A stretch of DNA of 44,588 nucleotides from IMG/VR virus record IMGVR_UViG_3300042355_000725, positions 1-44,588 of that record. The stretch is one strand, 5' to 3'. This stretch comes from a virus (lineage: Duplodnaviria; Caudoviricetes). Positions 1,819 to 29,220 of this stretch are shown one piece after another (within the stretch, counting starts at the first letter, position 1; each line of letters opens with the position of its first letter). Both the position numbers and the translations under genes were made by a program. Below the pieces are notes generated by a model. It was not told where the DNA came from. It made no database searches and saw only the letters and a list, made by a program, of their open reading frames with translations.

Positions 1819-2297
1819 TTTCCGCCAGCACTCCGATAGGATTCGAGGTTTAACTTGCCAGCCACCCTGAACCACTTTTCGCCGTCCCAAACGTCCCAAT
1901 AGGGCGTCGGCTCCGACGTTGTGCTTGTTTCGCGTCTCACTGCCCATCCGGCCAACCGCCACGGCTCGGCCTGCTCTCGCCACCATGTTTCGCATGGTCC
2001 GCATCCGTCCAGCGAGTACATGATGACGGTCGGCTTCATGGGCAATTTTGCTGCTTCAATCTTTTCCTTCTTTTGTTTCGCTAGGTCACGCTCGACTTCG
2101 AGTTTTTCGATACGAGACCCAAGACGAAACCATTGACGTTCTTGATCGCTGAATCGCTTTATCCAAGCGTCCACTTGCTCTAATCGCTCGGACACGGCTC
2201 GATAGACTCGGTAGCCCTGGTAAGTCACAAACGCGCCTGCGATGAGAACAGCAACCAGTACGAGTGTTTGGATCGCTGATAGGAACTTGGCAATCAT
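1815..2297 (-). CDS. Membrane-anchored thioredoxin/glutaredoxin-like protein
   Basis: N-terminal TM helix, coiled coil, then VIMYSLDGCGPC (CxxC) and a downstream TPYW (cis-Pro loop). Confidence 0.7.
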   Translation of the reverse strand: MIAKFLSAIQTLVLVAVLIAGAFVTYQGYRVYRAVSERLEQVDAWIKRFSDQERQWFRLGSRIEKLEVERDLAKQKKEKIEAAKLPMKPTVIMYSLDGCGPCETWWREQAEPWRLAGWAVRRETSTTSEPTPYWDVWDGEKWFRVAGKLNLESYRSAGGK

Positions 2298-3130
2298 GCC
2301 GATGCCTCCGCAACGGGAGGGTTATCCCCTTGGGAATCGTCGCTCGTTGATCGCACCAGATAAAACGCATGGTGCCGCGACGTGGATCGAAGATGCCGCG
2401 ACCAAGAGATCCAACCGCGCCCCTGTTGCCCGTACCGAAGACCCCAGGAGTTGAACATATCAAACTCAAACTCAGTGCCGGTCCATCGCAAGTCGTCTAC
2501 GCCTACAGCGTGATTACCCGGCCCATCGGTCGGATAGACCCGGCCCTCGGCATCGAGGGTGGTAAATGCGTTGGTCGCATGGACCGCCACCACGCCTACA
2601 AACCCGGCTGCAAGTCCGCTTTCCAGTTCGTCCGAGGTGTCAACTCGATAGCACTCGATAGCCTTGAACCGCGCCATCGCTTCGCGGGCTTCCTGAGAAA
2701 TGTTTTTCCATAGGTATTCTTGATGAGGCACCATCGACTCAGGAGGCACACCGCGTTCGGTAATCGCTTTCATGCCGTCATCGAGCATCGAGCCAACATC
2801 CCGCCCGCCGTTGATTTGTGCGTATAGCCCTTCACCTGAGAGCGGTATATGCCGAAGACCGCGTTTCACTCGCGCTCGCTCTAGCGCCTTGGCTCCCGCG
2901 TAGCCGTTGCAGCTTCCCCGCTGCCCCTGGCTCTTGATCCATTGGGAGGCCGGAAACCACAATCTTGCAGCCATCCGTCGAGGATCCTTGAGGATCTCGA
3001 TCTTCTGCTCCTTCGTGAACATCGGCATTCCCGAGTCCGCATAGGCTGTGAACGACTCTGGGCGATGGTCTGGAACCAGCGTCCCTAACGGAAACTCCAA
3101 CCCATCGATCTCGATATATGGCAGACTCAT
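2294..3130 (-). CDS. Papain-family (C1A) cysteine peptidase
   Basis: Catalytic motifs QGQRGSCNG, GNHAV and FNSWG..YG..G. Confidence 0.88.
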   Translation of the reverse strand: MSLPYIEIDGLEFPLGTLVPDHRPESFTAYADSGMPMFTKEQKIEILKDPRRMAARLWFPASQWIKSQGQRGSCNGYAGAKALERARVKRGLRHIPLSGEGLYAQINGGRDVGSMLDDGMKAITERGVPPESMVPHQEYLWKNISQEAREAMARFKAIECYRVDTSDELESGLAAGFVGVVAVHATNAFTTLDAEGRVYPTDGPGNHAVGVDDLRWTGTEFEFDMFNSWGLRYGQQGRGWISWSRHLRSTSRHHAFYLVRSTSDDSQGDNPPVAEASA

Positions 3131-4413: not shown

Positions 4414-4769
4414 CCCTTCACCTTTGGTCCCGAAAACTCAATCCTTGCCACCATGCCGCGTCGAATGTCACAGGCCAAGCAACGCCGCGTTTTGATCTTC
4501 GCTCCGCAATCTGGGCACCTTTGTGTCGCCGATCGGCTGTTGACTCGCTGGCGGGCTTGGCGAACGTAAGCGTCCCATCGTTCTTTCCAACCCTCCTTCC
4601 CGAGCACCAACCATTGCGGGGTGTGTTTTCTGTGGCACCACCAAGTCGCAAACATGCCACCGAGGTCGGAGTCATGCTCGTCGTAACGGATCGCCCACTC
4701 GATCGCTTTAAGAATCTCAGCGTCAAAGTAGAGCTTCGAGGATTCTGATGGTGGTGTGTGGTTGTTCAT
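4386..4769 (-). CDS. Hypothetical protein with C-terminal Zn ribbon
   Basis: CPDCG...CLAC; start codon uncertain (overlaps the RusA 3' end). Confidence 0.55.
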   Translation of the reverse strand: MNNHTPPSESSKLYFDAEILKAIEWAIRYDEHDSDLGGMFATWWCHRKHTPQWLVLGKEGWKERWDAYVRQARQRVNSRSATQRCPDCGAKIKTRRCLACDIRRGMVARIEFSGPKVKGCKSQNYST

Positions 4770-5142
4770 GTCCGCTCGCAATCCATTTCTCGATAAGAAC
4801 CTGAGCCGCCTGCCCGTCATCGTGCCAGATCGCTTTGAGGGCGTCTAGCGCGGCTTTTGCTACGTTGTCCGCATCCGGTTTCGTTGCCTTGGGAACTCTC
4901 GGCATCGGCTTGGTTTTCCAGACCATGCTCTTCGGCCTTGGAAACACAAACATCATTTCGACACGCAATGCGCCTTCCAAGGGTGGTCCCGAGTACGCTT
5001 GCGAAGCCACTAAACGAATGCACTGTTTGAATGGCTCCGCGTCCGAGGGAGTGTAGACCCGGACAAACGCTCCTTGCTTGCGGCCCTTCGTTCTCGGCTG
5101 TGCGATCGGGATCCCTGGAATGTAGAGTTCAATCGGGGTCAT
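4723..5142 (-). CDS. rusA: RusA-family Holliday junction resolvase
   Basis: IPGIPIAQPR...KPDADNVAKAALDAL...WHDDGQ, matching the RusA catalytic Asp/Lys pattern. Confidence 0.9.
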   Translation of the reverse strand: MTPIELYIPGIPIAQPRTKGRKQGAFVRVYTPSDAEPFKQCIRLVASQAYSGPPLEGALRVEMMFVFPRPKSMVWKTKPMPRVPKATKPDADNVAKAALDALKAIWHDDGQAAQVLIEKWIASGHEQPHTTIRILEALL

Positions 5143-5202
5143 GTTATGTTGATTTCCATATAACGCCGTATTATGGTCAATTCAATATAATACTTGTTAT
5201 GG
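5141..5202 (+). other. Putative integron attI-like site at the head of the cassette array
   Basis: AT-rich ATAAC-gcc-GTATTAT-N12-ATAATAC-tt-GTTATGG. Its core GTTATGGC (5196-5203) is the exact complement of the next attC's R'' GCCATAAC (5942-5949). It lacks the attC L-box bulges. Confidence 0.55.
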
Positions 5203-5205
5203 CGA

Positions 5206-6006
5206 TTAGAACAGCATGTCCTGAGACAGACGTTCGACCGCTATTTCGCAATACTTCTCATCTAGCTCGATGCCAATTGCACGCCGCCCCATTTGCTTCG
5301 CCGCTACAAGCGTCGAACCACTTCCCATGAATGGGTCTAGCACAATCTGGCCTTCGTCTGTCGTTACGCGTATGATCTCCGCTATCAGCCCTACGGGCTT
5401 TTGTGTTTGGTGTTCCCTTTCGCTACTGTGCACTCGCTTTTCGTTGATTACGTTTGAGCCATCCAGGGCGTAGTATGTTGGCGTTCCGTTGCTGAAATGC
5501 ATAGCTAGTTCGTGCTGTGCCTTGAAACCATTGCCTAGCCCGGCGTTTGGTTTCGCCCAAACGATCAGCGATTGGTATCGCATCCCGCTTGACTCAATCG
5601 CTGGAACCAAAAACGGCACCATTCGCCAATCTGTAAACGCTGTGAATGTTCCGCCTGGTGGTATGTGTCTCGCACACCATCCGGCTACGTGTGACAGCAT
5701 CCAACCGATTCCGGCTGTTGTCATGTTGTCGTTTACAAACCATCCGACTTCACGGATGGTTTCGGACCGTAGGCCCATGCCTTTCGCCGCTCTCTTTCCT
5801 GCCTCGTTAAACCCGCCAGAGCAATATGGCGGATCTGTCACGACTGCGTTGACTGTTCCCAGTTGGTAGATGATTTCCCTGCAATCGCCATGATAAATGG
5901 TGATGCCCTTGTGATCGTAGTACGGTTTCAATGCAACTGATGCCATAACAATTGGATGCATCGAAGCCCCTGCAATGTCGTTTGGTGATTCCTTGAAATT
6001 TTCCAT
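5206..6006 (-). CDS. Orphan N6/N4 DNA methyltransferase (beta class), cassette 1
   Basis: VTDPPY, HQTQKP, VLDPFMGSGST, GIE. ATG and SD AAGGAAGG lie in the loop of attC1. Confidence 0.92.
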   Translation of the reverse strand: MENFKESPNDIAGASMHPIVMASVALKPYYDHKGITIYHGDCREIIYQLGTVNAVVTDPPYCSGGFNEAGKRAAKGMGLRSETIREVGWFVNDNMTTAGIGWMLSHVAGWCARHIPPGGTFTAFTDWRMVPFLVPAIESSGMRYQSLIVWAKPNAGLGNGFKAQHELAMHFSNGTPTYYALDGSNVINEKRVHSSEREHQTQKPVGLIAEIIRVTTDEGQIVLDPFMGSGSTLVAAKQMGRRAIGIELDEKYCEIAVERLSQDMLF

Positions 6007-6052
6007 TATTCAAACCTTCCTTGTTGGGGCTCGATGATCCCTATCGTTATCG
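5943..6052 (+). other. attC1 (110 bp)
   Basis: CCATAAC-aattg-GAT(G)CATC-GA(A)GCCCC...GGGGCTC-GATGATC-cctatc-GTTATCG. Confidence 0.85.
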
Positions 6053-6403
6053 TCAAATGTTTTTGCGACCCTGCTCGTTCTGGCCGCGTTGACCGAATGC
6101 TAGCGGGTAATAGTAGAACGCTCCGTCTCCATCGTCCTCAATGGTTCCCATGACACAATCATTCCAATAGACCTCCAGCTTCCCCTCGATGACGAGATCG
6201 TTACACCCCGTTTTCGCAGGCCACTGTCGCAGATACTCCAGAAGCTCACCAACTGCCTTGCATTCAGCGTCGTTGTGCTGAAAACGAACATTAGCGATTG
6301 CGTCGTTGAATCGCTCCTCCCATCCGTCCTGTAGCTTCTTTACGCAATCCAAACACCAGCCCGAATCCAAATGGTCGCAATTCATTAAATGCGGCATTGT
6401 CAT
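6053..6403 (-). CDS. Hypothetical protein with Cys/His motif, cassette 2
   Basis: MTMPHLMNCDHLDSGWCLDC...; SD GGGAG; fills the space between attC1 and attC2. Confidence 0.7.
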   Translation of the reverse strand: MTMPHLMNCDHLDSGWCLDCVKKLQDGWEERFNDAIANVRFQHNDAECKAVGELLEYLRQWPAKTGCNDLVIEGKLEVYWNDCVMGTIEDDGDGAFYYYPLAFGQRGQNEQGRKNI

Positions 6404-6415
6404 AATCCAATCTCC

Positions 6416-6504
6416 CGATAACAAAGCGGTGAACCGAAGTCGCCGGTCACCTAGTTCTCAATCCGAGTATCTTGGCGGCGACTCGGTTACCGCTGAGGTT
6501 CGTC
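6416..6504 (+). other. attC2 (89 bp)
   Basis: CGATAAC-aaagc-GGT(G)AACC-GA(A)GTCGCCG...CGGCGACTC-GGTTACC-gctgag-GTTCGTC. Confidence 0.88.
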
Positions 6505-6508
6505 TGAC

Positions 6509-6766
6509 CTAACGAATACCGTCTCGCTCAAAATCTCGCATTGCGGCCTCAAACAACTGATTTCCTACAGACCGTGGACGACTTCGCTCTGCTTCGGCCT
6601 TCAATGCCTTGTCTGCATCAATCGTCTTGTCCCGCACCATGCGAGCAAGAACTCGCAAGCACTGCCATAAAGTTTCTTCGTCAACATCGTAAACCTTCCT
6701 CAATTGGTCGTTAGCCAAAAGCCGACGAACAACGGATTGCACCGAAGCCTCATTCGTCTCGCTCAT
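6509..6766 (-). CDS. Hypothetical protein, cassette 3
   Basis: ATG and SD (GAGGT) lie in the loop of attC3. Confidence 0.7.
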   Translation of the reverse strand: MSETNEASVQSVVRRLLANDQLRKVYDVDEETLWQCLRVLARMVRDKTIDADKALKAEAERSRPRSVGNQLFEAAMRDFERDGIR

Positions 6767-6812
6767 TCTCGTTACCTCTTTCCTTTCGGCTCGGTGAATC
6801 CGAGCGTTCGCC
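6724..6812 (+). other. attC3 (89 bp)
   Basis: GACGAAC-aacgg-ATT(G)CACC-GA(A)GCC...GGCTC-GGTGAAT-ccgagc-GTTCGCC. Confidence 0.85.
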
Positions 6813-6841
6813 GTATCAACCCTTTGTCATGAAATTACGGA

Positions 6842-7045
6842 TTATTTAACAACTGACGCAAGGTAATCGACGGCAGACTGCAATCGATCCTTTCCAACGA
6901 GTGCTTGTATCAACCGCAAAACCTTTTTCGGGTTGTCTTGGAAGTTCCTAGCGATCCTGTAAACAAACACTTGCTCATCAGGTGACAAACCCGCCGAACA
7001 ATCGGATGAACCCAAGTGCTCGGTCGGCTGTTTTTCGTTGTCCAT
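6842..7045 (-). CDS. Hypothetical protein (67 aa), cassette 4
   Basis: ATG 7045 with SD GAGGAG inside the loop of attC4. Confidence 0.68.
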   Translation of the reverse strand: MDNEKQPTEHLGSSDCSAGLSPDEQVFVYRIARNFQDNPKKVLRLIQALVGKDRLQSAVDYLASVVK

Positions 7046-7082
7046 GTTTTCTCCTCGCACTGGGTTATCCTGTGCGTTAGGT
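6993..7082 (+). other. attC4 (90 bp)
   Basis: GCCGAAC-aatcg-GAT(G)AACC-CA(A)GTGC...GCACTG-GGTTATC-ctgtgc-GTTAGGT. Confidence 0.85.
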
Positions 7083-7505
7083 GGATTTTGCGTCCGCCAT
7101 TTCGCGGCGCGTTGCTTGCGGGGTTTGATCCGACACCCACAACAATCGTTTCTCTTGGACTTCGGGAGCCTTGTACCCAGAGAGTCGCAAGAAAATCTGT
7201 AGCGATTTCTTGATGAATCCTTCTAGGTCGTCACCAATCAAATGTAAAAACTGTTCTTCCGTTCGTTCGAGATCGTACTTACTACACCACTCTTCCATCA
7301 TGCGATGGCAAAACAACGCTTCCCCTTCGCCGCTGTCAATTTCCTCTTTGGTAGGGTTTGTTATTCGACCCTCAACGTACTCGGCTGTTCGTTCCCTAAT
7401 GTGCCGGTACACCTCGAACGCAAATTCAGAAATAAACTCGTCTACATCTCTTGCGTCCGTCTGCACTGCTTGATCGCGATTGGCGTCGTATTGAAACTTA
7501 ATCAT
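7077..7505 (-). CDS. Hypothetical acidic protein (142 aa), cassette 5
   Basis: MIKFQYDANRDQ...; SD AGGTGG overlaps R'' of attC5; the stop TAA is the TTA of the attC4 core. Confidence 0.7.
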   Translation of the reverse strand: MIKFQYDANRDQAVQTDARDVDEFISEFAFEVYRHIRERTAEYVEGRITNPTKEEIDSGEGEALFCHRMMEEWCSKYDLERTEEQFLHLIGDDLEGFIKKSLQIFLRLSGYKAPEVQEKRLLWVSDQTPQATRREMADAKST

Positions 7506-7511
7506 GAAACC

Positions 7512-7602
7512 ACCTAACAATTGCGTGAACCGAAGCCCCCGATTCGGCGTTTTTGAAATGGAGGCGTAACCGGCGGGGGCTCGGTTACGCATTGCGTTAT
7601 GG
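7512..7602 (+). other. attC5 (91 bp)
   Basis: ACCTAAC-aattg-CGT(G)AACC-GA(A)GCCCCCG...CGGGGGCTC-GGTTACG-cattgc-GTTATGG. Confidence 0.9.
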
Positions 7603-7905
7603 CAACTTCGCAGCTTCAGCCAAAGCACGTTGACAACATTCCAAAAACGACCAGTAGTCGCCAGAACCGTCTGCCTCTGGTTCTGGTGAAATCCATCCAG
7701 CCCTTGGGAGTCCGTTAGCCCGCACATGCTTTCCCCGATACCACAAATCGACCGATGGTTCGTCTTCATCCGTGTCTATAACGAGTGTGTGCCACTTGCT
7801 TTCTGCCACCAAATACAACAGCTTGCAAACAGCCTCTTTGACTTCAGTCGCATAACAACGCGATGGACTCGGAGGCGACTCACTGGCTGGTTTCTGTTCA
7901 CTCAT
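7597..7905 (-). CDS. Hypothetical protein (102 aa), cassette 6
   Basis: MSEQKPASESPPSPSRCYATE...; the stop TAA is the TTA of the attC5 core. Confidence 0.68.
   Translation of the reverse strand: MSEQKPASESPPSPSRCYATEVKEAVCKLLYLVAESKWHTLVIDTDEDEPSVDLWYRGKHVRANGLPRAGWISPEPEADGSGDYWSFLECCQRALAEAAKLP
7850..7880 (+). other. Degenerate attC6, left arm only
   Basis: GCATAAC-aacgc-GAT(G)GACT-CGGAGGCG has the same spacing as the other sites; no right arm found downstream. Confidence 0.55.
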
Positions 7906-7958
7906 TTGGTTTTTCTTTCTGGGGTTTTCCAAGGACACGCCATTACCGAAACTCCCCT

Positions 7959-8147
7959 CTACTGAAACTCTTTCATCACTTTCGCCCACGCATCTACGAG
8001 ATGCTGCGGTAGATTGCTTCGACCGTGCAACTCTCGCTGCACGTTGTACGCATGACGCACGGCCACATGCACCGGCTGCTCGCCGTCGATCGTCATCAAC
8101 GCAATACGCTCTTCAAATTTTTCGATGATGTCTTGCGGGTCAGCCAT
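7959..8147 (-). CDS. Conserved phage hypothetical protein
   Basis: FEERIALMTIDG motif (EERAAI..DG type) directly after the replication gene. Confidence 0.7.
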   Translation of the reverse strand: MADPQDIIEKFEERIALMTIDGEQPVHVAVRHAYNVQRELHGRSNLPQHLVDAWAKVMKEFQ

Positions 8148-9021
8148 GGATCACCGCCAGAGGTTTAGGTGGTGGTGTAGGAGAAGCCAGCTTCTTGATC
8201 GTGTCGTAATGCTCGCCATGAAGTTCGCAGGCTTTGCGCATTGCACCTTCGAGGTACGCAATCGCTTTCTTTGCCGTGCCGTTCCTGATCGCATCGCAGG
8301 AGTCAGCCACTACTTCGCGACAATCGAGCACAGTAGCCACAAAACACGCCCTCCACACTGCATCGCGGTTTTCAGGCGGTCTTGGCAATTTCGCGAAGCG
8401 ATTCGCTTCGGCTCTCACCCGTTCGATGAAATCCTCATCCACCACCACCCCCCACTTCACCAACCACTCAGCTTGGCTTGGCTTGGCTTGGCTTGGTTGG
8501 ATGTGGTTAGATGTGGTTAGATGTGGATAGGTAAGGATAGGTAAGGATAGACTTGGTAAGATCTGCGCGCGCGAAGACTCCCCCATAGCCCCCCCCATAG
8601 ACCCGGGCACAGGGTGGGTCTTAGGGTGGGTCTTAGGGTGGGTCTCAGGCTCAACAGTCGAAACAGTCGAAACAGTCGAAACGTCCGAGCGCCTCCCGAC
8701 GAACCCCCCCAATCGGTTGATATTAGCCTTGAGGTAGTTCGGGCAATGGTCGGCCCAATCGTGGACAACCAGACGGCACTGGTCGTCCTCGTCGAGCCAA
8801 CGACATTCGACGAGGGCTGCGACCAGATCGTCCGCGTTCCCGTCCCAGTCCACCATGACCGCGATGTCTTCGTTACAGAAGCGTCCTATATCGCCCCGAG
8901 GGCAATTCTTCGCGACGCCCGCCCAGAGCATTTCAAGCAGTCCCACAACGCCTCGGTTCGACTCCTTGAGTCGTCGCACCAATCGCTTGAACTTCAACAG
9001 ATCCATCGTGCCAACTTTCAT
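8140..9021 (-). CDS. Phage replication initiator protein
   Basis: wHTH-like N-domain (GLLEMLW...LVECRWLD...LVVHDWADH), repeat-rich linker, helical C-domain (AIAYLEGAMR); early-operon position. Confidence 0.75.
   Translation of the reverse strand: MKVGTMDLLKFKRLVRRLKESNRGVVGLLEMLWAGVAKNCPRGDIGRFCNEDIAVMVDWDGNADDLVAALVECRWLDEDDQCRLVVHDWADHCPNYLKANINRLGGFVGRRSDVSTVSTVSTVEPETHPKTHPKTHPVPGSMGGAMGESSRAQILPSLSLPILTYPHLTTSNHIQPSQAKPSQAEWLVKWGVVVDEDFIERVRAEANRFAKLPRPPENRDAVWRACFVATVLDCREVVADSCDAIRNGTAKKAIAYLEGAMRKACELHGEHYDTIKKLASPTPPPKPLAVIHG
8471..8682. repeat. Tandem-repeat cluster inside rep (candidate origin)
   Basis: GCTTG x5, ATGTGGWTAG x3, GTAAGGATAG x2, CCCCATAG x2, AGGGTGGGTCTY x3, AACAGTCGA x3. 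Confidence 0.85.
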
Positions 9022-9145
9022 GTTGTGCCTCGCTCCTACGGCGTTTCAACTAAAATGAAAAGTACCCGGTCAACAGGTAGTAGCCGGGCGCTACTGCGAT
9101 TTGTGGTGCCTGTCTCACCGTAAGGTGCCTGTCGGCTCGGGCCTT

Positions 9146-9457
9146 TTATGAGGCCGTCAAAAGCAACTGACGATCGGCAACGGACAAGTTATCCATCGCT
9201 TCCATCTTTGCCTTGAGACGATACGAACGCACTTCCATCTCAAGGTCCGCGATTCGAGCTTGATACTCGATGCACTTTCCTTGAGCTATTCGCGCCGCTT
9301 CGTTTGCTTCATGCAAGGCATCATTGAAGCTTGCTTCGGCTGCACGCACGGCATGAATCAGGCGACTAACGTCCTTCTGGGTTCGTCGCCCCATAGGCAA
9401 GGTGTTGTTTGAATCAATAACCACACCAGCCTTCTCGAAATGCTTGTCAATAGACAT
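9146..9457 (-). CDS. Hypothetical coiled-coil protein
   Basis: Same-strand ORF filling the operon. Confidence 0.65.
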   Translation of the reverse strand: MSIDKHFEKAGVVIDSNNTLPMGRRTQKDVSRLIHAVRAAEASFNDALHEANEAARIAQGKCIEYQARIADLEMEVRSYRLKAKMEAMDNLSVADRQLLLTAS

Positions 9458-9478
9458 AGCACACGTCCATTTCTCGGT

Positions 9479-10186
9479 CTAAGACCGCAGTAATCCTGCT
9501 AGTTCATCGCAAACCGTGGCTAAACGCTCAGCCAAACGCGGCTCAGATTTCTCTAGCAGCTTCCATCCATCTGCTGGCACGTCTGCCAACAACTCGATGA
9601 TTCCTTCAATCTGTCCAATCTTTTGCTTGAGATAGACAGGCAAATCGATACCGTAATCCTGTTTTGGTGCAGGCTCTCGTTTCTCCGGCTTAATGCCAAG
9701 CTCAGCGTTAACTGCTTGTCGGACAATATTGGCCGTTACCGGCTTGCCCTGCTCCTTGGCAATTTCAACGGCTGCTTTTGCGACTCGCTGAACGTCTTGC
9801 TTGCGTAGAGATTGCAAGTCTCGCGGAGAACCCGGCTTCGTCGTGTCCTCGACGGCTAACCTCGCAAACTCTTTTACGATTGTGGGCTTCCATTCGACTG
9901 GACTATTTCCCACTGCATTGGGTAATATTTTTGGGTCTGGTAGTTTCGGACGGATCGCCGCAGCAGCGATAAGATTCAATACTTGCTGCCGTTCGATGCC
10001 GAAATCGTATCCAACACGCTCTTTCAAATACGCATCCCAGCTTCCAAAACCATCTTCCTTGTACAACTCATCGTCGCGAATCTCTTTCAATGCGTTTCCG
10101 GTTTCAACAAACGCTTCCATCGTTCCGCGAATTGATTTTTCCAGCGTTCGCAACCGCTGCTTCCGATCTACTGATAGCTTTGCCAT
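9479..10186 (-). CDS. Conserved phage protein (DUF3102-like N-terminus)
   Basis: LEKSIRG...FVETGNALKEIRDDELYK..GFGSWDAYLKER; SD AAGGGTG before ATG 10186. Confidence 0.65.
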   Translation of the reverse strand: MAKLSVDRKQRLRTLEKSIRGTMEAFVETGNALKEIRDDELYKEDGFGSWDAYLKERVGYDFGIERQQVLNLIAAAAIRPKLPDPKILPNAVGNSPVEWKPTIVKEFARLAVEDTTKPGSPRDLQSLRKQDVQRVAKAAVEIAKEQGKPVTANIVRQAVNAELGIKPEKREPAPKQDYGIDLPVYLKQKIGQIEGIIELLADVPADGWKLLEKSEPRLAERLATVCDELAGLLRS

Positions 10187-10260
10187 CACTTCACCCTTCA
10201 CTTGAATGCCAGCGTTAAAACGGTGCTGGCTAACCGTTGCCTTTCGGCGATTCAAAAAAA

Positions 10261-10330
10261 ACCGAGCAGGACTTGCACCCGCGCGCAGTTGGGCTATGAG
10301 AGGCCCAGTCGCACCTCACTGTGAGTCGGT
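10261..10330 (-). ncRNA. Degenerate tRNA-like cloverleaf followed by a U-run
   Basis: ACCGA / CTCA-cag-TGAG / TGGGC-ctctcata-GCCCA / GCGGG-tgcaagt-CCTGC / TCGGT then a T-run. Confidence 0.4.
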
Positions 10331-10337
10331 CTTGCCG

Positions 10338-10661
10338 TCACACCTCGACCGGATGCGGCGCGTCGAGAAGTGACAAATCGGCTTCTGTTACCGTTACCTT
10401 TTGTCCAAGGACTGCGCGATCGTAGTACATCACCGCTCGGATGGGCCCAAGCGAACTTTCGACGGCTCCCACTTCTGGCGACGACAAGTTTTGAATTTCT
10501 CGCTTGTCACTAAACACATGCAATAGCGTGTGCAGTTCTTCGATCTTCGTTGCCTTATACCATCTGGCTTCCACTCGCAAACGATCTACAATCTCTTCAG
10601 GCAGCGTCTCAACCGCATCCGCTAGAGACCGCAACGCCACTACCAATTCTTCTCGTTTCAT
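10338..10661 (-). CDS. Hypothetical protein
   Basis: SD AAGGGGA; operon position. Confidence 0.7.
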   Translation of the reverse strand: MKREELVVALRSLADAVETLPEEIVDRLRVEARWYKATKIEELHTLLHVFSDKREIQNLSSPEVGAVESSLGPIRAVMYYDRAVLGQKVTVTEADLSLLDAPHPVEV

Positions 10662-10675
10662 ATTTCGTTATCCCC

Positions 10676-11071
10676 TTACGTTGTTGGTTGTTGTAAAAAT
10701 GCCCCGCTTCCCACGGGGCCGGGAGTTGTCGTTGTAGGTGTCTGTACTCCTAATGTTCCACCATGCTCGTAGACGGTCGCGCTGTGGCCACTGACGGAAC
10801 ACAGTCGCGATCCAACAGCCCGGATCAGACCGAGCTTTTCCAGTTCCTTTGCACGCTTGCGAATCGAATCGTGTAGCGTGATATTGCCGTTGGCGATCTG
10901 TGATGCTGCCTCTCGCGCCGTGGCCAATCCACCACACCGCGTCAAACCCTCAAGAAACTGTGATCTGCGAATCGCAACCGAAACTCTCGTCTCGATCGCC
11001 GCTTCCTTGGATGTCTCGGGATCCGAAGCCCTAGCACGTTTAGCCCAGTCAAACAGATCGCCAGTGCTCAT
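10676..11071 (-). CDS. Putative winged-HTH phage protein
   Basis: ARASDPETS motif plus SIRKRAKELEKLGLI...SG; ATGA-coupled to bet. Confidence 0.7.
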   Translation of the reverse strand: MSTGDLFDWAKRARASDPETSKEAAIETRVSVAIRRSQFLEGLTRCGGLATAREAASQIANGNITLHDSIRKRAKELEKLGLIRAVGSRLCSVSGHSATVYEHGGTLGVQTPTTTTPGPVGSGAFLQQPTT

Positions 11072-11766
11072 TCCTGGGCCTCCGCTTGCGGCTCGGTTTC
11101 CACCAAATCTGGATCCGCCTCGAAGACCACCGGGGCCGGAGTTATCACGCCGATCTTCTGCTTGAGCGATTCCGTTCGTGATGACGGAGCCACCGCGTCC
11201 ACAGTCAACGTCGTCTCGACCGCGATCATGCGCTCGTACTCGTCAGGCTCCATGATGCCCGCAAAGCCGAACGCATAGCGGATGCACTGGATCGCGGCCT
11301 TGTGGCGTAGCATCCTGGCAGGCCACTGACGCCACACGTCGGTATTCCGCTTGCACTCAGCAAGGTACTCCGTCACCTTGCTTGCGTGCCTGCGATCCTT
11401 GCGGTAGATCACCGCTGTTACCGCGATCAACGTCCCGGCGTCAAAGTGGTCCTCGAACTCCATGCCGTCCATCATCGGATGGGAGTTCGCCAAGTTAAGC
11501 CAGCCGTCCACGCTAACTATGGGTTGGATCCCGCCACCCTTGGTAGGGAAAGCGTAGATTTCCTTCGTCAATGGGTTCAGGTTGTACTCCTTAGCCACAA
11601 GCATAAACGCCGCTAGTTGCTCCCGAGTGCATTCCTTGGGGACCACCGTCGCCCGGATCGTCGCCTCGAACGCCTCTGGCTCCATGCCGTACTGGTGAGC
11701 CAAATCCCTCAGAACGCTTTTGCGTTCGGTGCTCTTGGCAATTCCGACTTCTTCAACTGCACTCAT
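11068..11766 (-). CDS. bet: Single-strand annealing recombinase (lambda Bet/RecT family)
   Basis: YNLNPLTKEIYAFP...IVSVDGW...WRQWPARMLRHKAAIQCIRYAFGFAGI. Confidence 0.92.
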   Translation of the reverse strand: MSAVEEVGIAKSTERKSVLRDLAHQYGMEPEAFEATIRATVVPKECTREQLAAFMLVAKEYNLNPLTKEIYAFPTKGGGIQPIVSVDGWLNLANSHPMMDGMEFEDHFDAGTLIAVTAVIYRKDRRHASKVTEYLAECKRNTDVWRQWPARMLRHKAAIQCIRYAFGFAGIMEPDEYERMIAVETTLTVDAVAPSSRTESLKQKIGVITPAPVVFEADPDLVETEPQAEAQE

Positions 11767-12650
11767 TTCTTCACCTTCGCCTTCGCAATTCGCAGGACTC
11801 GGTAACTGGACGGCTCCACCGTGTAGCCCTTCCGATGCTGTTCGAGGTACGACACCTTGGTGCCATCGGCGAACATGCCAACCTCGGCATCACCGAGAGC
11901 CAACAGGAGTTGCTTATCGCATTCCTCCTGACGCTCCTTGATGGCCTTGGCTTCGGCTGCGAGACTCTCCCGCGTGGCCAGCAAGACATTCAGATCGTCG
12001 CCAAGATCGACGACCTTCTCAGGCACACGCCGGAACCGCTTCACGATGTCCAGACTGGCCTTCTCCCGCGACGGTTCTTCGCCGTGGACAATATGGCGAT
12101 CCCACCATTCCAACAGCGTGTTGGCTAGCGTCTCGCACAGATCGTCATCGCGTGGGATCTCGTAGCGGACAATCCCGCGACCACCGAGCAGAGCGTACAG
12201 AAACGCCATATCGGCCCCAGTGCAAAGCAGTTGCGTATGCACTTGGCAAAGATAGTGCTCGGGGATTTGGTCCGTTCCCGCGTCACCCCAGTAAGGTGCC
12301 AACGGTCCCGTCATTCCCGCCGTCTTGATTTCGACGGGATTCCCATCCTCAGTCAACGCATCGAGCGTTGCCACAACCGGATGCCCACCGAGATAGGGCA
12401 CTCGCACATTGCGGGCGAGCGATCCCAACTCCGCTTCCGCGTAATCGATCACTGCCCGTTCGAGGTACTGACCAATCTTGGTCGCCTCATTCCCCTTCCA
12501 GGGTTCGGCGAGCCCCCGCTTGTCGGCCCACACATCCCATGCGGAACGCCATGGATCGACACCGAGGATCCCGGCCACGTCCGAGGCTCCAATCCCCTTG
12601 CGACGTTCATCCAACGCTTCGTCCGAAAGTCCGATAGATGCGACACTCAT
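11763..12650 (-). CDS. YqaJ/lambda-exonuclease family protein
   Basis: RRKGIGASDVAGILG, ATLDA, VEIKT, YLCQVHTQL; start at ATG 12650. Confidence 0.92.
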   Translation of the reverse strand: MSVASIGLSDEALDERRKGIGASDVAGILGVDPWRSAWDVWADKRGLAEPWKGNEATKIGQYLERAVIDYAEAELGSLARNVRVPYLGGHPVVATLDALTEDGNPVEIKTAGMTGPLAPYWGDAGTDQIPEHYLCQVHTQLLCTGADMAFLYALLGGRGIVRYEIPRDDDLCETLANTLLEWWDRHIVHGEEPSREKASLDIVKRFRRVPEKVVDLGDDLNVLLATRESLAAEAKAIKERQEECDKQLLLALGDAEVGMFADGTKVSYLEQHRKGYTVEPSSYRVLRIAKAKVKK

Positions 12651-12970
12651 GCCACACCTCGCTTTCCGGCCTCGTACTGAGCCAGATCGCAGGACGGCAC
12701 ATAGACGCCATCCTTTGCCCGAGCGAACATCAACACCTCGGCGTAGTCCGCCATGAACTTGGCGTCTACTTCGCACATGGTTCGATCCATGCGCATCACA
12801 CTGACCTTTCGAGGCGAAGCGTCACGATCGACAGCATCGGCTCTCAAGATCACTTGACCCGGCGCGGTGATACCGATCCGAGCCTTGTCCCTGCGAGTAT
12901 TCAACAGCGTGATTTCCACGTTGTCGCCTACGCGCACACTCTCCCCGCACTTGCGAGTAAGTACAAGCAT
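12647..12970 (-). CDS. csrA: CsrA/RsmA-family RNA-binding protein with C-terminal extension (107 aa)
   Basis: MLVLTRKCGESVRVGDNVEITLL...ARIGITAP..VILR; SD AGGAG. Confidence 0.85.
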   Translation of the reverse strand: MLVLTRKCGESVRVGDNVEITLLNTRRDKARIGITAPGQVILRADAVDRDASPRKVSVMRMDRTMCEVDAKFMADYAEVLMFARAKDGVYVPSCDLAQYEAGKRGVA

Positions 12971-13082
12971 TTCATTGCTCCTGGTTAAAGCCACCACCTA
13001 TGGCTCGTCGAGGGAGCACCCCTCAAGAAGCCGTTGTTACTACCGATCAGGCTCGCGTCTTACTTCTCGCCTGACCGGGGTA

Positions 13083-13111
13083 AATGTAGCAACGTCAGCT
13101 ACATTATTCAA
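13083..13111 (-). promoter_or_regulatory. Early-operon sigma70 promoter overlapped by a palindromic operator
   Basis: TTGAAT-17-TACATT with TGn extension; perfect inverted repeat AATGTAGC-N7-GCTACATT at 13083-13105. Confidence 0.7.
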
Positions 13112-13116
13112 GTCAT

Positions 13117-13332
13117 CTATCGAATTTTTTTCGGTTTGCCTTTAGGCAGCTTTTCGAGGTTGTAGCGTTCACACTCTTTCTTGGGAAAAACGAGTGTTTG
13201 GCCTACTCGCATCGGATGCAACTTCCCCCTTTGCACATAGGTGCGAATGGTTCTTTCCGATAAACCAAGAAACTGCGCGGCCTCGGCAGTTGAAAAAAGA
13301 ACGTCAGATTTTCCTTGAAGTGTCATGACCAT
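13117..13332 (-). CDS. HTH_17/excisionase-like DNA-binding protein (candidate repressor or Xis)
   Basis: LFSTAEAAQFLGLSERTIRTYVQRGKLHPMRVG...F; next to attP and int. Confidence 0.82.
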   Translation of the reverse strand: MVMTLQGKSDVLFSTAEAAQFLGLSERTIRTYVQRGKLHPMRVGQTLVFPKKECERYNLEKLPKGKPKKIR

Positions 13333-13338
13333 GCTCGT

Positions 13339-13366
13339 ATTGTAGCTTGTGTTGATACATTTACAA
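13339..13366 (-). promoter_or_regulatory. Promoter of the HTH gene with a second operator copy; probably leaderless
   Basis: TTGTAA-16-TACAAT, then 6 nt to the ATG at 13332; operator TGTAGC-N7-GATACA at 13341-13359. Confidence 0.6.
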
Positions 13367-13436
13367 CGCAAAGAAAACCTAAGTGCGGGTAAGACTGATC
13401 CACAACGGAGGACCAACCGCACTCAGGCTTTCTTGA

Positions 13437-13501
13437 CGGAGAGGACAGGATTCGAACCTGCGGTAAGGAATTAACCCTACGCCGAATTAGCAATCCGGTG
13501 C
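13437..13501 (-). other. attP core: 3' part of tRNA-Ser(GCT)
   Basis: CCGGA-TTGCTAA-TTCGG anticodon arm, long variable arm, GCAGG-TTCGAAT-CCTGT T arm and 3' acceptor CCTCTCCG. The 5' acceptor strand and D arm are missing; the fragment lies just upstream of the integrase. Confidence 0.88.
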
Positions 13502-13583
13502 TTTTTTCTCGCCTTTCACTTTGCTTTTGCTTGGAAATGACCTACCTATCTTTAACGCCAAGTCTAAACCTATCCGCCCTGTC

Positions 13584-14453
13584 ATGTACCTCAGCGATCT
13601 CGTCCAGAAGATCGCGATGGAACGCGATCTCGAATCGGCCACGATCGGCCAATACCACCGCGCTTGCTCGAAGCTAGGATCCTTTCTCGGGAAAATTCCG
13701 AAGGTAGACGATTTGTCGGAAGAAAACGTCAATGGGTTTTTGTCTAGCCTCAAGGAATCTGGAAAGTCGGCAACGACCATCATCAATTACCGGGTCGCAC
13801 TAACGGTGATATGGAACTACGCAGTAGCCCGCGATCTGTGCCAGCCCTTTAATGCTCGCAAGCTGAAACGACCAAAGCAAGAGCAGCGGGTTGTCCGATC
13901 GTGGTCATTGAGCCAGATCAAGATTCTGATTGATGCGTGTGCCAAGGTGCCAGGGCGATTGCAGTGCGGCGTCGCGACCGGTGCGTTTCTCGCGGCCTGG
14001 GTGCGTGTCGGCTACGACACCGGACTGAGGCCATCGGACCTGCGGCTGCTGCGATGGGCAGATGTCGATTTCTGCCAAGGGACGATCACATTGACCCAGC
14101 ACAAAACAAAACGAGCCCACACGGCTCGGCTGTCACCAGCGGCCATGGGGCTGCTGACAGAGATCGAACGCCCACCGAGGGATAAGGTGTTTCCGCTAAG
14201 CAAATCTGGCGTGCGGCGGATCGAGTTGATCTTGTTTTCCACCGCCGCAAAACTCGGATTTCGGCGCATGCGTGGCCAAGGGCTCGGATGCCTTCGCAAA
14301 AGCCACGCCACCCAGGTCTACACTGCCGAGGGGGAGTCGGCAGCGGCAGAGTCATTGGGACATGTGTCAGGCACCAGAACAGTCAGGAGGCACTACATCG
14401 ACTCAAGGTCGATCAAGTCGGGTAGGTTGCCACCCGAACCGCCTGCGGCTTAG
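13584..14453 (+). CDS. int: Tyrosine recombinase/phage integrase (~289 aa; start uncertain)
   Basis: SAM-like N-domain, DTGLRPSDL, K in QHKTK, LRKSHAT, LGH, HY. Confidence 0.92.
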   Translation: MYLSDLVQKIAMERDLESATIGQYHRACSKLGSFLGKIPKVDDLSEENVNGFLSSLKESGKSATTIINYRVALTVIWNYAVARDLCQPFNARKLKRPKQEQRVVRSWSLSQIKILIDACAKVPGRLQCGVATGAFLAAWVRVGYDTGLRPSDLRLLRWADVDFCQGTITLTQHKTKRAHTARLSPAAMGLLTEIERPPRDKVFPLSKSGVRRIELILFSTAAKLGFRRMRGQGLGCLRKSHATQVYTAEGESAAAESLGHVSGTRTVRRHYIDSRSIKSGRLPPEPPAA

Positions 14454-14513
14454 TGAAAACGACAAACGTCCCGACAATGTGTCGGAAATGCGTCGGAACC
14501 GCCTGCGGCTTAG
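14436..14513. repeat. 18-bp direct repeat flanking a short hairpin between convergent genes
   Basis: GAACCGCCTGCGGCTTAG at 14436-14453 and 14496-14513; CCGACA-atg-TGTCGG lies between them. Confidence 0.85.
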
Positions 14514-16738
14514 GGCGGTGGCGGTGGCAAGACGTTCACCGTGACGGCCACGGGATCGCTGTATTCGTAACCGTCGAAAACTCGAATTGAGAAATAAAAA
14601 CTGCCTGGAGATGTGACCGCTGAATGTTCGACGTGCAAACCGAACGCACCCCCGAATGTATTAGTGAATCTCACTAGTAAATTTGCAGGGTAGAATCCAT
14701 TGGACGCGCTGACCCTCGAAGACACAAACCACCCTCGGCCCGACGAATGCGTTGCCGTCAATGGAACAAACGCCGAGGTGGAAGGACTGGTAATAGTAGC
14801 GACGATCGGATTGGGAGTTACGACTGGTTTTGTGGAAGGGTTGTACCCCTCGACCGCTACAGGGAACTTACCAACTGGCGGCAGTCGATTTCCGTCGTCG
14901 AACATCATCCAGTAAATGTAATGCGAAGCAAGGCCGGTCGCTATCAGAGCGGGCACCGTTCCCCATGGCAGTTCTCGAAAACCCCCGTCAGCTTGACCGT
15001 ATGGCCCGTACACTCGCGAAAGTCGAAGACGTGGTTGAACCGTTGCGTATTGATTGAGGATACCTTGCCGCGTTTGATAGCCAATCCACGGCCACAGAGG
15101 GCTCGTAGTGCTCGGGCTTATAGACAACCCGGCACAACTCGTTTGCGTGACCACTCGCTTGCGGTGTCGATCGTACACTTCCGTCTGATTGATGTCTGGC
15201 ACGTCTGCCATGGGGTGAGTCGTAAAATTCGCTACGGTCAACCCCTGAGATTCGAACGCGGTTGTAGGAGCGGTGCGTAATGTGGGATTCAGACGAATGC
15301 TTTCGCCAAAGTGTGTCGCTGTCAATGTTTCGCGCTCTCGCAACTGCACTGGCACTGATTTTTCGTAAGTGATTTCGTAATCGTCGGACGCCGAGGTCGT
15401 GAAGTTTCGAGCATTCCAACCTAACGGGCAAAAAATAGCTCCAGCCTGGGAGAAAACTCGCTCTGAATATCCTGTGAGTCTTTGCTTTGCGGCACCCCAC
15501 GTCGGCGAAACTGGTATCCAGCGAAATTGATGCCACCTGTATTGCGACTGCGTGGGAAGCGAATACCAAGTTCCCGGCCAGTTGGCCGTTATGTTGGCGA
15601 TCGCATCTAGGTCGCCACTGTCGATGGCACTTTCAAACACTGATAGATCGACCACGGGGTGCCCTGGATATTCGCCATACATCCAAGATACGAACGGCAG
15701 CGATAGGTCTGTGTCTCCACCAAAGCTGTCCGTGCTGCTTGTGCGATGTTGAACTGCGAATGCACCATTTGGAATTGCCATTGCGGCTCCTGCGCCGTTG
15801 TCAAGCCATTGCCTGCGCTGTGTTTGCACCACAAACGTAGAGAACAGACACGGTTTTCGCCGAGCCATCATCCGCTGTTCTTTCACCCCGCCAAGGCTGT
15901 CCACCCAAGCCCATCGATTTGATACATAGCTGGTACCGGCATCATGCTCGATAAAAAACTGATAGCACCGAGTTTCAGTCTCGTTCACCCACGGTCCAAA
16001 GTGATCGAAGACGCGATGTATCCAATACCGGCCAGTCCTGCGTAAAACATCGCTGGTAGGCGTCTGGCTAGATGCTGACTCCAATGTGTGAACATGGAGA
16101 AGCGAGGAAAACGACTTGTCTCTGTGGATATTAGGCGACCAAAATTTAGTGCTGTCAAACGTAGACGTGTCCGTAAAGCTGTGCCCAATCGTGGCCACGC
16201 CTAAAAGATCGTCGCGAACTACAGGAGCCGATGCCTTTTCGCTTGCGTTTATGTAAATCGCTTGCGAACCGCCCTCATAATCAAATTCGATTACCGAATT
16301 TGGTCTTGCGTCGTAGGAGTCTGCTGGCGAAGCGAACCAATACGAATTTGGGTACGTCCCTTGGAGCGTGCTCCCTCTCCACGGAACGTCTTTTGTATTA
16401 GGCGAAAACGACGTATACGTCCGGGTCGCTGTCCCTGCTCGGGCGCAGGCGGTCTGCACTCCATCTGGTCGCGTCCAGGGTTCTTGCGGCTCGAAGGTGG
16501 GCGTCACTTGCGAGCTTGAGGCCGAGGGATACTGCAAAGTTTTTGAAGTGAAAGTTGAGTATCCTTGAGTCTGAATGAGGCGATTGTGTGGTCGCGGTAG
16601 GTTGAGAGTACCGAACCGAATACCCCGAGCCGATATAGGGACTCGAAGGTGCTGGCGATTGGTTTTTGCTTCTTCGTCGTACTCCAACGGCGAAACGTCG
16701 TATATGTCTTTCGACAGATTGAGACCAATTCGCGTCAT
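14510..16738 (-). CDS. Putative tail-tip/receptor-binding virion protein
   Basis: 742 aa, rich in S/T and aromatic residues; C-terminus FSIRVFDGYEYSDPVAVTVNV resembles a cadherin/Ig-like strand pattern; last gene of the late operon. Confidence 0.55.
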   Translation of the reverse strand: MTRIGLNLSKDIYDVSPLEYDEEAKTNRQHLRVPISARGIRFGTLNLPRPHNRLIQTQGYSTFTSKTLQYPSASSSQVTPTFEPQEPWTRPDGVQTACARAGTATRTYTSFSPNTKDVPWRGSTLQGTYPNSYWFASPADSYDARPNSVIEFDYEGGSQAIYINASEKASAPVVRDDLLGVATIGHSFTDTSTFDSTKFWSPNIHRDKSFSSLLHVHTLESASSQTPTSDVLRRTGRYWIHRVFDHFGPWVNETETRCYQFFIEHDAGTSYVSNRWAWVDSLGGVKEQRMMARRKPCLFSTFVVQTQRRQWLDNGAGAAMAIPNGAFAVQHRTSSTDSFGGDTDLSLPFVSWMYGEYPGHPVVDLSVFESAIDSGDLDAIANITANWPGTWYSLPTQSQYRWHQFRWIPVSPTWGAAKQRLTGYSERVFSQAGAIFCPLGWNARNFTTSASDDYEITYEKSVPVQLRERETLTATHFGESIRLNPTLRTAPTTAFESQGLTVANFTTHPMADVPDINQTEVYDRHRKRVVTQTSCAGLSISPSTTSPLWPWIGYQTRQGILNQYATVQPRLRLSRVYGPYGQADGGFRELPWGTVPALIATGLASHYIYWMMFDDGNRLPPVGKFPVAVEGYNPSTKPVVTPNPIVATITSPSTSAFVPLTATHSSGRGWFVSSRVSASNGFYPANLLVRFTNTFGGAFGLHVEHSAVTSPGSFYFSIRVFDGYEYSDPVAVTVNVLPPPPP

Positions 16739-19909: not shown

Positions 19910-20150
19910 TGGTATTCCTCTTTGCTGCATGCGCCGCGTCTCGTATCGCTTGCTTGGCCTCTAATTCCTTGAGGACGGCTTGTTCTCTGGGATTCAGGAC
20001 TTCACCAAATCGAATTGCCTCATGCAATTCATCGAGGTTGATCGAATCGATTAGGTGTTGCTGATCGTCGGAAAGTCCTTCCTGTGTCGTCAACGGGAAT
20101 TGCAATGGGTCTATGGTTGAGTTTGCTGGGTTGGGTATGGGGGTATCCAT
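19857..20150 (-). CDS. Small acidic protein, candidate antitoxin/immunity protein
   Basis: SD GAGG; starts inside the last codons of the zeta-like domain and overlaps the MuF start. Confidence 0.55.
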   Translation of the reverse strand: MDTPIPNPANSTIDPLQFPLTTQEGLSDDQQHLIDSINLDELHEAIRFGEVLNPREQAVLKELEAKQAIRDAAHAAKRNTNATRPDKDPKRQDLPPQ

Positions 20151-28954: not shown

Positions 28955-29220
28955 ATTTTTCCTCCGCAAGCCTTGTCAACGTAAAGTTGCACGGCCTTGG
29001 ATTTCGCTTGTTGTGCTAGTTCTTCGTCACCGTAGGCTCGGAGCCAAAGTTCGTACACTTGTTGGTAGTTGGTCGCGTCGTAGTTCCCCTCGTCAATCTT
29101 CCGCTTTGCCTGGAGCGCTGGAAGCATCTCCTGCAGCGCCACGATCTGCTCGGCGTGCAGATCGAACGGGTTTAGCCCGTACTCCCATCCGACTCGGATC
29201 CTTCGTTCGTATTTTTTTTT
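28951..29220 (-). CDS. -1 frameshift extension of the tail assembly chaperone (gpGT-like; fusion ~182 aa)
   Basis: The -1 frame is open from the A9 run (29212-29220): KYERRIRVGWEYGLNPFDLHAEQIVALQEML... to the stop at 28951. Confidence 0.7.
   Translation of the reverse strand, partial: KKKYERRIRVGWEYGLNPFDLHAEQIVALQEMLPALQAKRKIDEGNYDATNYQQVYELWLRAYGDEELAQQAKSKAVQLYVDKACGGKI

Follow-up and report, generated by a model that had tools for sequence, protein, structure and literature searches.

An actively exchanged, integrase-less array of attC cassettes with antisense genes in the early operon of a temperate tailed phage

The virus record IMGVR_UViG_3300042355_000725, a whole linear entry of IMG/VR estimated to be 95% complete, was analyzed over its full length of 44,588 nucleotides (the window); its DNA words are found in lake-water metagenomes (24 of 24 among the runs listed, with at least half of the words in 6). 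By its predicted terminase, head and portal domains, tyrosine integrase, Bet/YqaJ proteins, CsrA-like regulator, replication initiator and RusA resolvase, the virus is a temperate tailed phage. In its leftward early operon, between the genes for Rep (8140-9021) and RusA (4723-5142), lies an array of integron-type gene cassettes, each consisting of a gene and an attC recombination site and the whole being preceded by an attI-like platform. We take this interval to be the position of the nin accessory region in lambdoid phages. The array comprises the following elements.

5141 to 5198, + strand: attI-like platform of family A, 58 bp, conserved before the first cassette in other phages; presumed function
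5197 to 6046, + strand: cassette 1, gene plus attC 1; R'/R'' pairing 4/4; not in the related viral locus L007, where identity stops at 5201
5206 to 6006, − strand: orphan N6/N4 DNA methyltransferase, 266 aa, first 20 codons within attC 1 (Pfam N6_N4_Mtase, 5e-36; PADLOC MTase_II, 1e-41)
5943 to 6052, + strand: attC 1, 110 bp (geometry scan, fold, covariance model 39 bits)
6047 to 6498, + strand: cassette 2; gene at 6053-6403 on the − strand, 116 aa, no family; copies in L015, L151 and L016
6416 to 6504, + strand: attC 2, 89 bp (geometry scan, fold, covariance model 67 bits)
6499 to 6806, + strand: cassette 3; gene at 6509-6766 on the − strand, 85 aa, start inside attC 3; copies in L155 and L170
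6724 to 6812, + strand: attC 3, 89 bp (geometry scan, fold, covariance model 49 bits)
6807 to 7076, + strand: cassette 4; gene at 6842-7045 on the − strand, 67 aa, start inside attC 4; 96% copy in L015
6993 to 7082, + strand: attC 4, 90 bp (geometry scan, covariance model 65 bits)
7077 to 7596, + strand: cassette 5; gene at 7077-7505 on the − strand, 142 aa, no family, stop codon inside the core; identical copy in runs X3 and X7
7512 to 7602, + strand: attC 5, 91 bp (geometry scan, fold, covariance model 72 bits)
7597 to 7905, − strand: gene of cassette 6, 102 aa, an open reading frame with its start beyond the half site and its stop codon inside the core
7850 to 7877, + strand: half attC, R'' and L'' only, seen in the sequence; no fold

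The attC sites were located with a geometry scan for AAC, 5 nt, an 8-nt L'' box with an extra base at position 4, a 7-nt L' box, 6 nt and GTT. In the whole window this pattern occurs exactly five times, always on the + strand and never on the − strand, and 30 third-order Markov copies of the window gave 0 matches. The same five + strand sites were recovered (39-72 bits, E 3e-19 to 2e-9) by a covariance model trained on 60 bacterial sites, all of planctomycete hosts and drawn from 103 eligible sites not matching the search pattern; this model is not IntegronFinder's own. The − strand scored at most 15 bits, and nothing beyond the five sites exceeded 16 bits in the window. A sequence-only reading of this DNA had placed five full sites of 89-110 bp here and had named a covariance model as a check; both methods yield precisely these five, and the bacterial-site model supports each of them. 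Bottom-strand folds of the five sites have z values of −1.7 to −4.4, and the lowest-energy fold is the long attC hairpin in four of the five, attC 4 preferring another fold. Rfam gave no match in the array and one sub-threshold match outside it.

When each left core is compared with the R'' box at the right end of the same cassette, 22 of 24 variable positions pair, vs. 10 of 20 for the site's own R' box, and 2 of 720 permutations reach 22; the pairing within each cassette that had been claimed from the letters thus holds. It is symmetric and gives no polarity. That the + strand is the top strand follows from the bulge geometry together with the strand preference of the model; the extrahelical bases on the R'' arm and the R''-L''-L'-R' spacing are both present in the sites of the array. 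Crossovers fall at each G/TT (the slash marks the point of exchange), namely between G5196 and T5197 and after G6046, G6498, G6806, G7076 and G7596, and the cassette coordinates of the sequence-only reading are correct.

The sixth site, which starts at 7850, is a half site and gives no fold (z +1.0). Cassette 6, whose site is limited to the R'' and L'' boxes, is probably fixed where it stands. Similar half sites occur in the viral loci L007 and L008. The last site is truncated both in the window (7850-7961) and at L007:9040-9070, where its L'' box merges into the end of a fixed 62-aa gene and adds five residues. One low-depth contig of run X16 joins the end of a full site to position 7933 (joint 6810>7933), perhaps an older end of the array.

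An integron integrase gene (intI) is absent from the window, as had been noted before: the best scores on the TIGR02249 model are about 20-22 bits, with 21.9 bits for the phage tyrosine integrase, vs. a cut-off of 265. The array is a CALIN (a cluster of attC sites without an integron integrase), a class defined by at least two clustered attC sites and no neighboring integron integrase; it contains five full sites, as called by the host-derived model. It falls short of a complete integron, for which intI, the cassette promoter Pc and genes sense to attC are missing. A weak scan of the + strand of 4700-14600 found no sigma-70-like site, and so no Pc-like promoter into the array.

All six cassette genes lie on the − strand, antisense to attC; for genes 1, 3, 4 and 6 the start codon is within the hairpin or past it, and the stop codons of genes 5 and 6 fall in the core. 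This is where the cassette reading made from the letters was incomplete: sites and cassettes had been recognized, the antisense genes, the start signals inside attC and the attI-like platform had been overlooked. The methyltransferase of cassette 1 likely protects against host restriction and is the only cassette product matched by annotated GenBank phages (7 records). For genes 2-6, Pfam, PHROGs and PADLOC gave no function and a homologue search only one near-identical match, for gene 5; ESM Atlas returned nothing for genes 2 and 5.

Sites of the window's attC family were gathered from viral contigs (15 and 45 stretches) and from bacterial genomes (at least 128 stretches in at least 127 loci); among the matches listed, 119 of 127 bacterial loci are Planctomycetota by title. 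To score gene orientation, an equal span was evaluated for each strand, using viral cassettes with at least 3/4 core pairing; a count of 66 antisense and 0 sense viral cassettes was rejected as biased by unequal strand spans. Among 72 viral cassettes, 23 are open on the antisense strand only, 1 on the sense strand only, 44 on both and 4 on neither, and the longer open frame is antisense in 57, sense in 11 and tied in 4. The bacterial cassettes (n = 208, among the matches listed) divide into 124 sense-only, 13 antisense-only, 24 open on both strands and 47 on neither. A run resembling a ribosome-binding site together with a start codon is present on the bottom strand of 56 of 117 viral sites and on the top strand of 3; for bacterial sites among the matches listed, the corresponding numbers are 29 of 395 and 42. 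At 105 viral sites with an antisense frame of at least 40 codons, in-frame leaders amount to 28/44, 28/41 and 0/20 by frame, and the leaders end in recurring peptides, e.g., ASVQSVV or GSSDCS. The antisense frame of cassette 2 differs from its 91% copy by 20 synonymous and 5 non-synonymous codon changes.

L158 and L050 hold the sole viral cassette protein with a host-cassette homologue (48% over 42 aa), and the gene is antisense in the host cassette as well. At L008:5456-6118 the lost right half of an attC has fused two cassette genes into one 220-aa frame, the second half of which resembles an HNH nuclease by eye.

Platform A, the stretch in front of the first cassette, contains core-like boxes starting at 5143, 5170 and 5196 (spacing 27 and 26 bp), the last two of which are each preceded by an inverted partner box; an inverted pair with a 5-nt spacer lies upstream (5158-5176), and the core occupies 5185-5198. 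Copies of the 58 bp ahead of the first core, at 85%, are present in phages that otherwise differ. A pattern built from nine examples matched 14 viral stretches, several of which are duplicates or near-duplicates of one phage; 13 of these are followed by an attC whose R'' pairs with the core at 4/4, and the 14th ends at a contig edge. Behind the platform stand 11 different first cassettes, the window's included, and two pairs of loci share the left-hand gene and differ in the first cassette, as do the window and L007. When the pattern was used on metagenomes without its core, GTT stood at the fixed distance in 7 of 7 matches and a paired attC followed in 6 of 7. Platforms of a second family, B, with palindromes at a 33-bp period, head arrays at L008:7154-7256 and also in L014, L016, L151, L160, L161, L168, L174 and L176; cassette 2 of the window stands behind platform B in L016 and in runs X3, X5 and X7.

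Below E 0.01, profiles of platforms A and B hit only viral loci in 1.3 Mb that include about 40 host intI loci. Host attI cores beside intI share an AT-rich L-box, a short spacer and the GTT layout with the platform, and one of them has the same seven bases before GTT as the window; most of 42 host intI loci gave no attI call (short flanks; 4 without the motif). The attI1 site carries accessory direct repeats that are reported to favor attI x attC reactions (PMC8946536). Judged by its behavior in these comparisons, the platform is likely an attI site. At L155:4722-5100 and L164:2133-2500 the neighbors of platform A are a phage integrase gene and a segment that resembles, by eye, a tRNA 3' end (a possible attP); the platform thus occurs at different genomic positions.

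Exchange of cassettes is seen when the window is compared with L007, to which it is 94.7-97.5% identical on both flanks and 100% in the terminase. The match breaks off at 5201, barely within the first core, and is regained at 7961; in between, L007 carries three cassettes unrelated to those of the window, one of them with the unusual core GTTCCCC, which is paired. That cassette (L007:9485-9968; the core is non-purine and perfectly paired) consists of a small gene and an AT-rich non-coding stretch, possibly its own promoter. The L007 form is present in run X16 at high depth and shows loose ends at both of these positions, and L008 (92% on the Rep side) has another cassette set behind platform B. 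Single cassettes recur elsewhere: the body of cassette 2 is 100% identical in L015 and 91% in L151, and its protein 100% in L016 behind platform B; cassette 3 is found at 97% in L155 and 89% in L170 among other neighbors; cassette 4 (96%) directly follows cassette 2 in L015, cassette 3 being missing between them; an unrelated gene of L008 has the attC 4 body at its head (96.6% over 87 bp); and an identical copy of cassette 5 stands behind another site in runs X3 and X7. Cassette 3 together with platform A occurs in a complete 73-kb phage (L155) that has no detectable homologue of the window terminase.

In 12 of 13 pairs of shared viral cassettes, identity starts at G/TT; the 13th pair also shares its left neighbor. 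The right-hand attC is carried along near-identically, as far as the next GTT, in 8 of these pairs; in 3 it has diverged, and in 2 another attC takes its place. Because identity starts at G/TT and the attC travels along, the unit of exchange, as these alignments delimit it, is a gene with its downstream attC, bounded by G/TT, which is what the bottom-strand chemistry of IntI predicts (PMC5027507). Contigs from lake water contain joints that skip cassette 3 or 4 (e.g., 6803>7074, which skips 4) and loose ends at G/TT and at R''; contig depth served solely to note the presence of cassettes in further genomes of a sample, and joints such as 6048>6491 and 6495>6749, with sides below 30 nt, were treated as similarity between sites. 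A joint 6495>6045 (runs X1, X3, X4 and X7) was considered as a closed circle of cassette 2 and rejected, its extra letter matching the linear arrangement in L015. The expectation that related phages would show cassettes gained, lost and reordered with breaks at G/TT was therefore confirmed by this comparison.

A second kind of break lies at R''. Among 118 records of viral sites there are 174 pairs whose attC bodies agree at 90% or more and whose genes are unrelated, and in 169 of these identity ends within 8 nt of the AAC of R''. Two pairs share the gene and not the attC body, with the leader frame preserved. The bodies form families of up to 11 near-identical copies. In bacterial arrays, too, attC bodies are typically shared between unrelated genes. 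The two closest homologues of the methyltransferase carry different attC-like leaders, and its relatives at 77-87%, available as proteins only, begin at the usual methionine, which gene-calling could explain. Top-strand cleavage at R'' is reported at low frequency for some sites (PMC5027507). Excision on the top strand followed by normal reinsertion would give a gene the attC body of its left neighbor and would keep the R'/R'' pairing; exchange driven by Bet is an alternative source of such swaps.

As to the enzyme, IntI above the cut-off stands beside attC sites of the same family in 5 bacterial loci (6 candidates tested, among the matches listed), and 79 of 151 Pirellulaceae genomes encode IntI. 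Similarity of the attC sites points to a planctomycete as host of the window phage. None of 41 array-bearing viral records passes the IntI cut-off, 10 of them being at least 90% complete. The complete phage G005 (IMGVR_UViG_3300044712_001170) has an IntI-like recombinase gene at L182:149-1180, co-oriented in the early operon just before Rep and RusA; its stop codon is followed by a short hairpin, and on the upstream side, across the genome end, there are antisense cassettes. Its 343-aa product is 36-40% identical to the closest host IntIs, and those share 44-57% with one sampled host IntI. The most likely supplier, as judged from these genomes, would be the host, with a phage in second place.

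The genes around the array that bear on its working are the following.

4723 to 5142, − strand: RusA-like Holliday junction resolvase, the fixed gene after the array, its start codon abutting the platform (Pfam RusA, 5e-25; 99% identity in L007)
8140 to 9021, − strand: replication initiator (Rep), the fixed gene upstream of the array, with short tandem repeats at about 8613-8683 (PHROG 9474, 5e-16)
11068 to 12776, − strand: Bet/RecT annealase and YqaJ exonuclease (Pfam and PHROG matches)
13521 to 14453, + strand: ordinary phage tyrosine integrase, not IntI (21.9 bits on TIGR02249, cut-off 265)

The sole sigma-70-like site in 4700-14600 lies at 13339-13366 and is directed leftward into the early operon, and the CsrA-like regulator is encoded at 12647-12997. 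The array has a GC content of 50% vs. 55%. It is covered by overlapping contigs from two lake runs, one of which may be the source sample; long pieces differ at 0-1 positions, and no piece spans the whole array. Elsewhere in the window, a 2952-aa protein (20111-28969) combines a Mu-type portal domain with DarB-like helicase/methyltransferase and Zeta-toxin-like domains, the gene beside it (18269-19930) encodes an ADP-ribosyltransferase (ART-PolyVal) fused to a MuF domain, and a papain-like C1 peptidase at 2294-3130 possibly has a role in lysis.

This locus is a real, actively exchanged, integrase-less array: a CALIN by definition that works in an integron-like manner. We think it likely that it operates as an integron without its own integrase, composed of an attI-like platform and antisense attC cassettes, in which IntI of the planctomycete host, acting in trans, inserts, excises and reorders the cassettes. 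IntI would recombine the folded bottom (minus) strand at G/TT. The genes would need no Pc, as the early transcript of the phage would read the cassettes from the far end; because the transcript enters there, a newly inserted cassette would land last in the accessory block of the operon, the reverse of the situation in bacterial integrons. The attC loop would supply a ribosome-binding site and often a leader of 12-20 residues, each cassette thereby bringing its own translation start. A replication fork leaving an origin in Rep would place the attC bottom strands on the lagging template, an arrangement reported to favor recombination (PMC5371416).

Several observations weigh against this view. 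With 3 mismatches allowed, the platform A pattern was not found in 401 Pirellulales genomes, nor was the platform found beside about 40 host intI loci, and non-cognate integrases are said to act poorly on attI sites (PMC8946536); for these two reasons recognition of platform A by a host IntI is unproven. Neither a prophage nor a spacer ties the window phage to a host, and one of the 41 viral records, that of G005, does encode an IntI-like protein (259 bits vs. the cut-off of 265). The excised circles that the sequence-only reading had suggested looking for did not turn up in 8 lake runs, represented by contigs, which drop rare forms. Breaks also occur at R'' and within sites, for which bottom-strand IntI chemistry alone is insufficient. 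With respect to the genes, expression of the antisense frames and use of the leaders are read from DNA letters; 44 of the 72 viral cassettes, which are short, are open on both strands, and the comparison for cassette 3 is weak (10 synonymous vs. 12 non-synonymous changes).

Other explanations have to be measured against the same data. The sites and the chemistry would be unchanged if the enzyme came from other phages or prophages with an IntI-like protein of their own, a phage-run arrangement that we hold to be unlikely. It would account for G005, where the IntI-like gene adjoins those for Rep and RusA and antisense cassettes are close by, for the distance of this protein from the best host IntIs (36-40% identity) and for the phage-specific platforms. 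However, just one of the 41 records encodes an IntI-like protein, looking for close relatives of the G005 protein yielded only the protein itself, G005 shows neither platform A nor B, and IntI is common among hosts (in 79 of 151 Pirellulaceae genomes). Improbable to a further degree is the proposal that Bet/RecT and the exonuclease swap genes by way of short similarity among copies of attC, with IntI playing little part today. The bet and yqaJ genes of the window, the families of up to 11 near-identical attC bodies and the joints and loose ends inside some sites fit this idea, but left breaks fall at G/TT between dissimilar sites in 12 of 13 pairs, at insertions behind the platform nothing but the core is shared, and R'/R'' pairing reaches 4/4 in 62 of 85 viral cassettes vs. 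13 for the site's own partner.

That a host array was captured once and is now a relic has very little probability. Its sites are of the host type, its GC content departs from 55% and its last site is broken; yet near-identical phages carry different arrays and identical cassettes stand in different contexts, which largely refutes a relic. Host cassettes, moreover, are mostly sense, and viral cassette proteins have a homologue among 259 host cassettes (a small sample) in 1 of 72 cases vs. 24 of 72 in other viral loci. Least credible of all is that the acting enzyme is the tyrosine integrase encoded by the phage itself (13521-14453): no other site-specific recombinase was found in the window, but its 21.9 bits on the IntI model are far from the cut-off, and several complete array-bearing phages have no match at all to the IntI model. 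Going beyond the host-supplied system that we prefer, planctomycete phages might run a mirror-image integron of their own, with phage-specific attI sites, a cassette pool across unrelated phages, attC hairpins as portable modules for translation start, and occasional recombination of the top strand at R'' that gives genes fresh attC bodies and draws in ordinary phage genes. We put this forward tentatively, as a possibility; if it is true, phage early regions are a birthplace of new cassettes.

With these findings, attC clusters of phages shift from possible debris to a working system of gene exchange, which offers a site-specific path by which the accessory regions of phages become mosaic, and the reversed layout inverts the expression logic of integrons. 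The origin of cassettes has been stated to be unknown (PMC4889954). This question gains concrete substrates here, in that many unrelated genes carry one attC body in frame and a single gene turns up under different bodies.

Integrase-less attC clusters in phages have already been published: Qi et al. (2023; PMC9892861) report 17 phage CALINs with methyltransferase cargo, recombination by IntI1 of 5 of 6 phage attC sites tested, and a cryptic Shewanella prophage whose CALIN has a host-type attI. Those phage CALINs resemble the window array as attC clusters without intI that carry an orphan DNA methyltransferase; in the CALIN of phage TJE1 the genes are sense to attC, whereas those of the window are antisense. 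The text of that report mentions no antisense layout, attC start signals, phage-specific attI or exchange of cassettes between phages, although its figures and annotation may show other layouts. Our literature search, which most subscription papers fall outside, turned up neither antisense phage arrays nor attI sites specific to phages. The host-built covariance model found nothing in TJE1 or MW202573 and is therefore taxon-specific.

With chromosomal and mobile integrons, as described by Cury 2016 (PMC4889954) and Nivina 2016 (PMC5027507), the window array shares attC geometry, strand asymmetry, the G/TT crossover, chimeric sites and a fixed insertion site, and accessory direct repeats are likewise described for attI1 (PMC8946536); it differs from them in that it has no intI, that no Pc-like promoter was found and that its genes face the insertion site. 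The CALIN and SALIN (a single attC site without an integron integrase) elements reported at attG (bioRxiv 10.1101/2022.09.11.507474; PMC11389934) are likewise hitchhikers that depend on an integrase in trans, and the half sites seen here fit the loss of folded attC sites by slippage described for them; insertion at attG takes place at an arbitrary GWT, whereas the window array sits at a conserved 58-bp platform common to many phages. The chromosomal integrons of Pirellulaceae have the same attC family (39-72 bits for the host-built model on the phage sites) and a similar attI core geometry. Their cassettes, in contrast, are mostly sense and longer (median body 585 bp vs. 304 bp in viral cassettes), their attC loops rarely carry bottom-strand start signals, and their repeats differ from those of the phage platforms.

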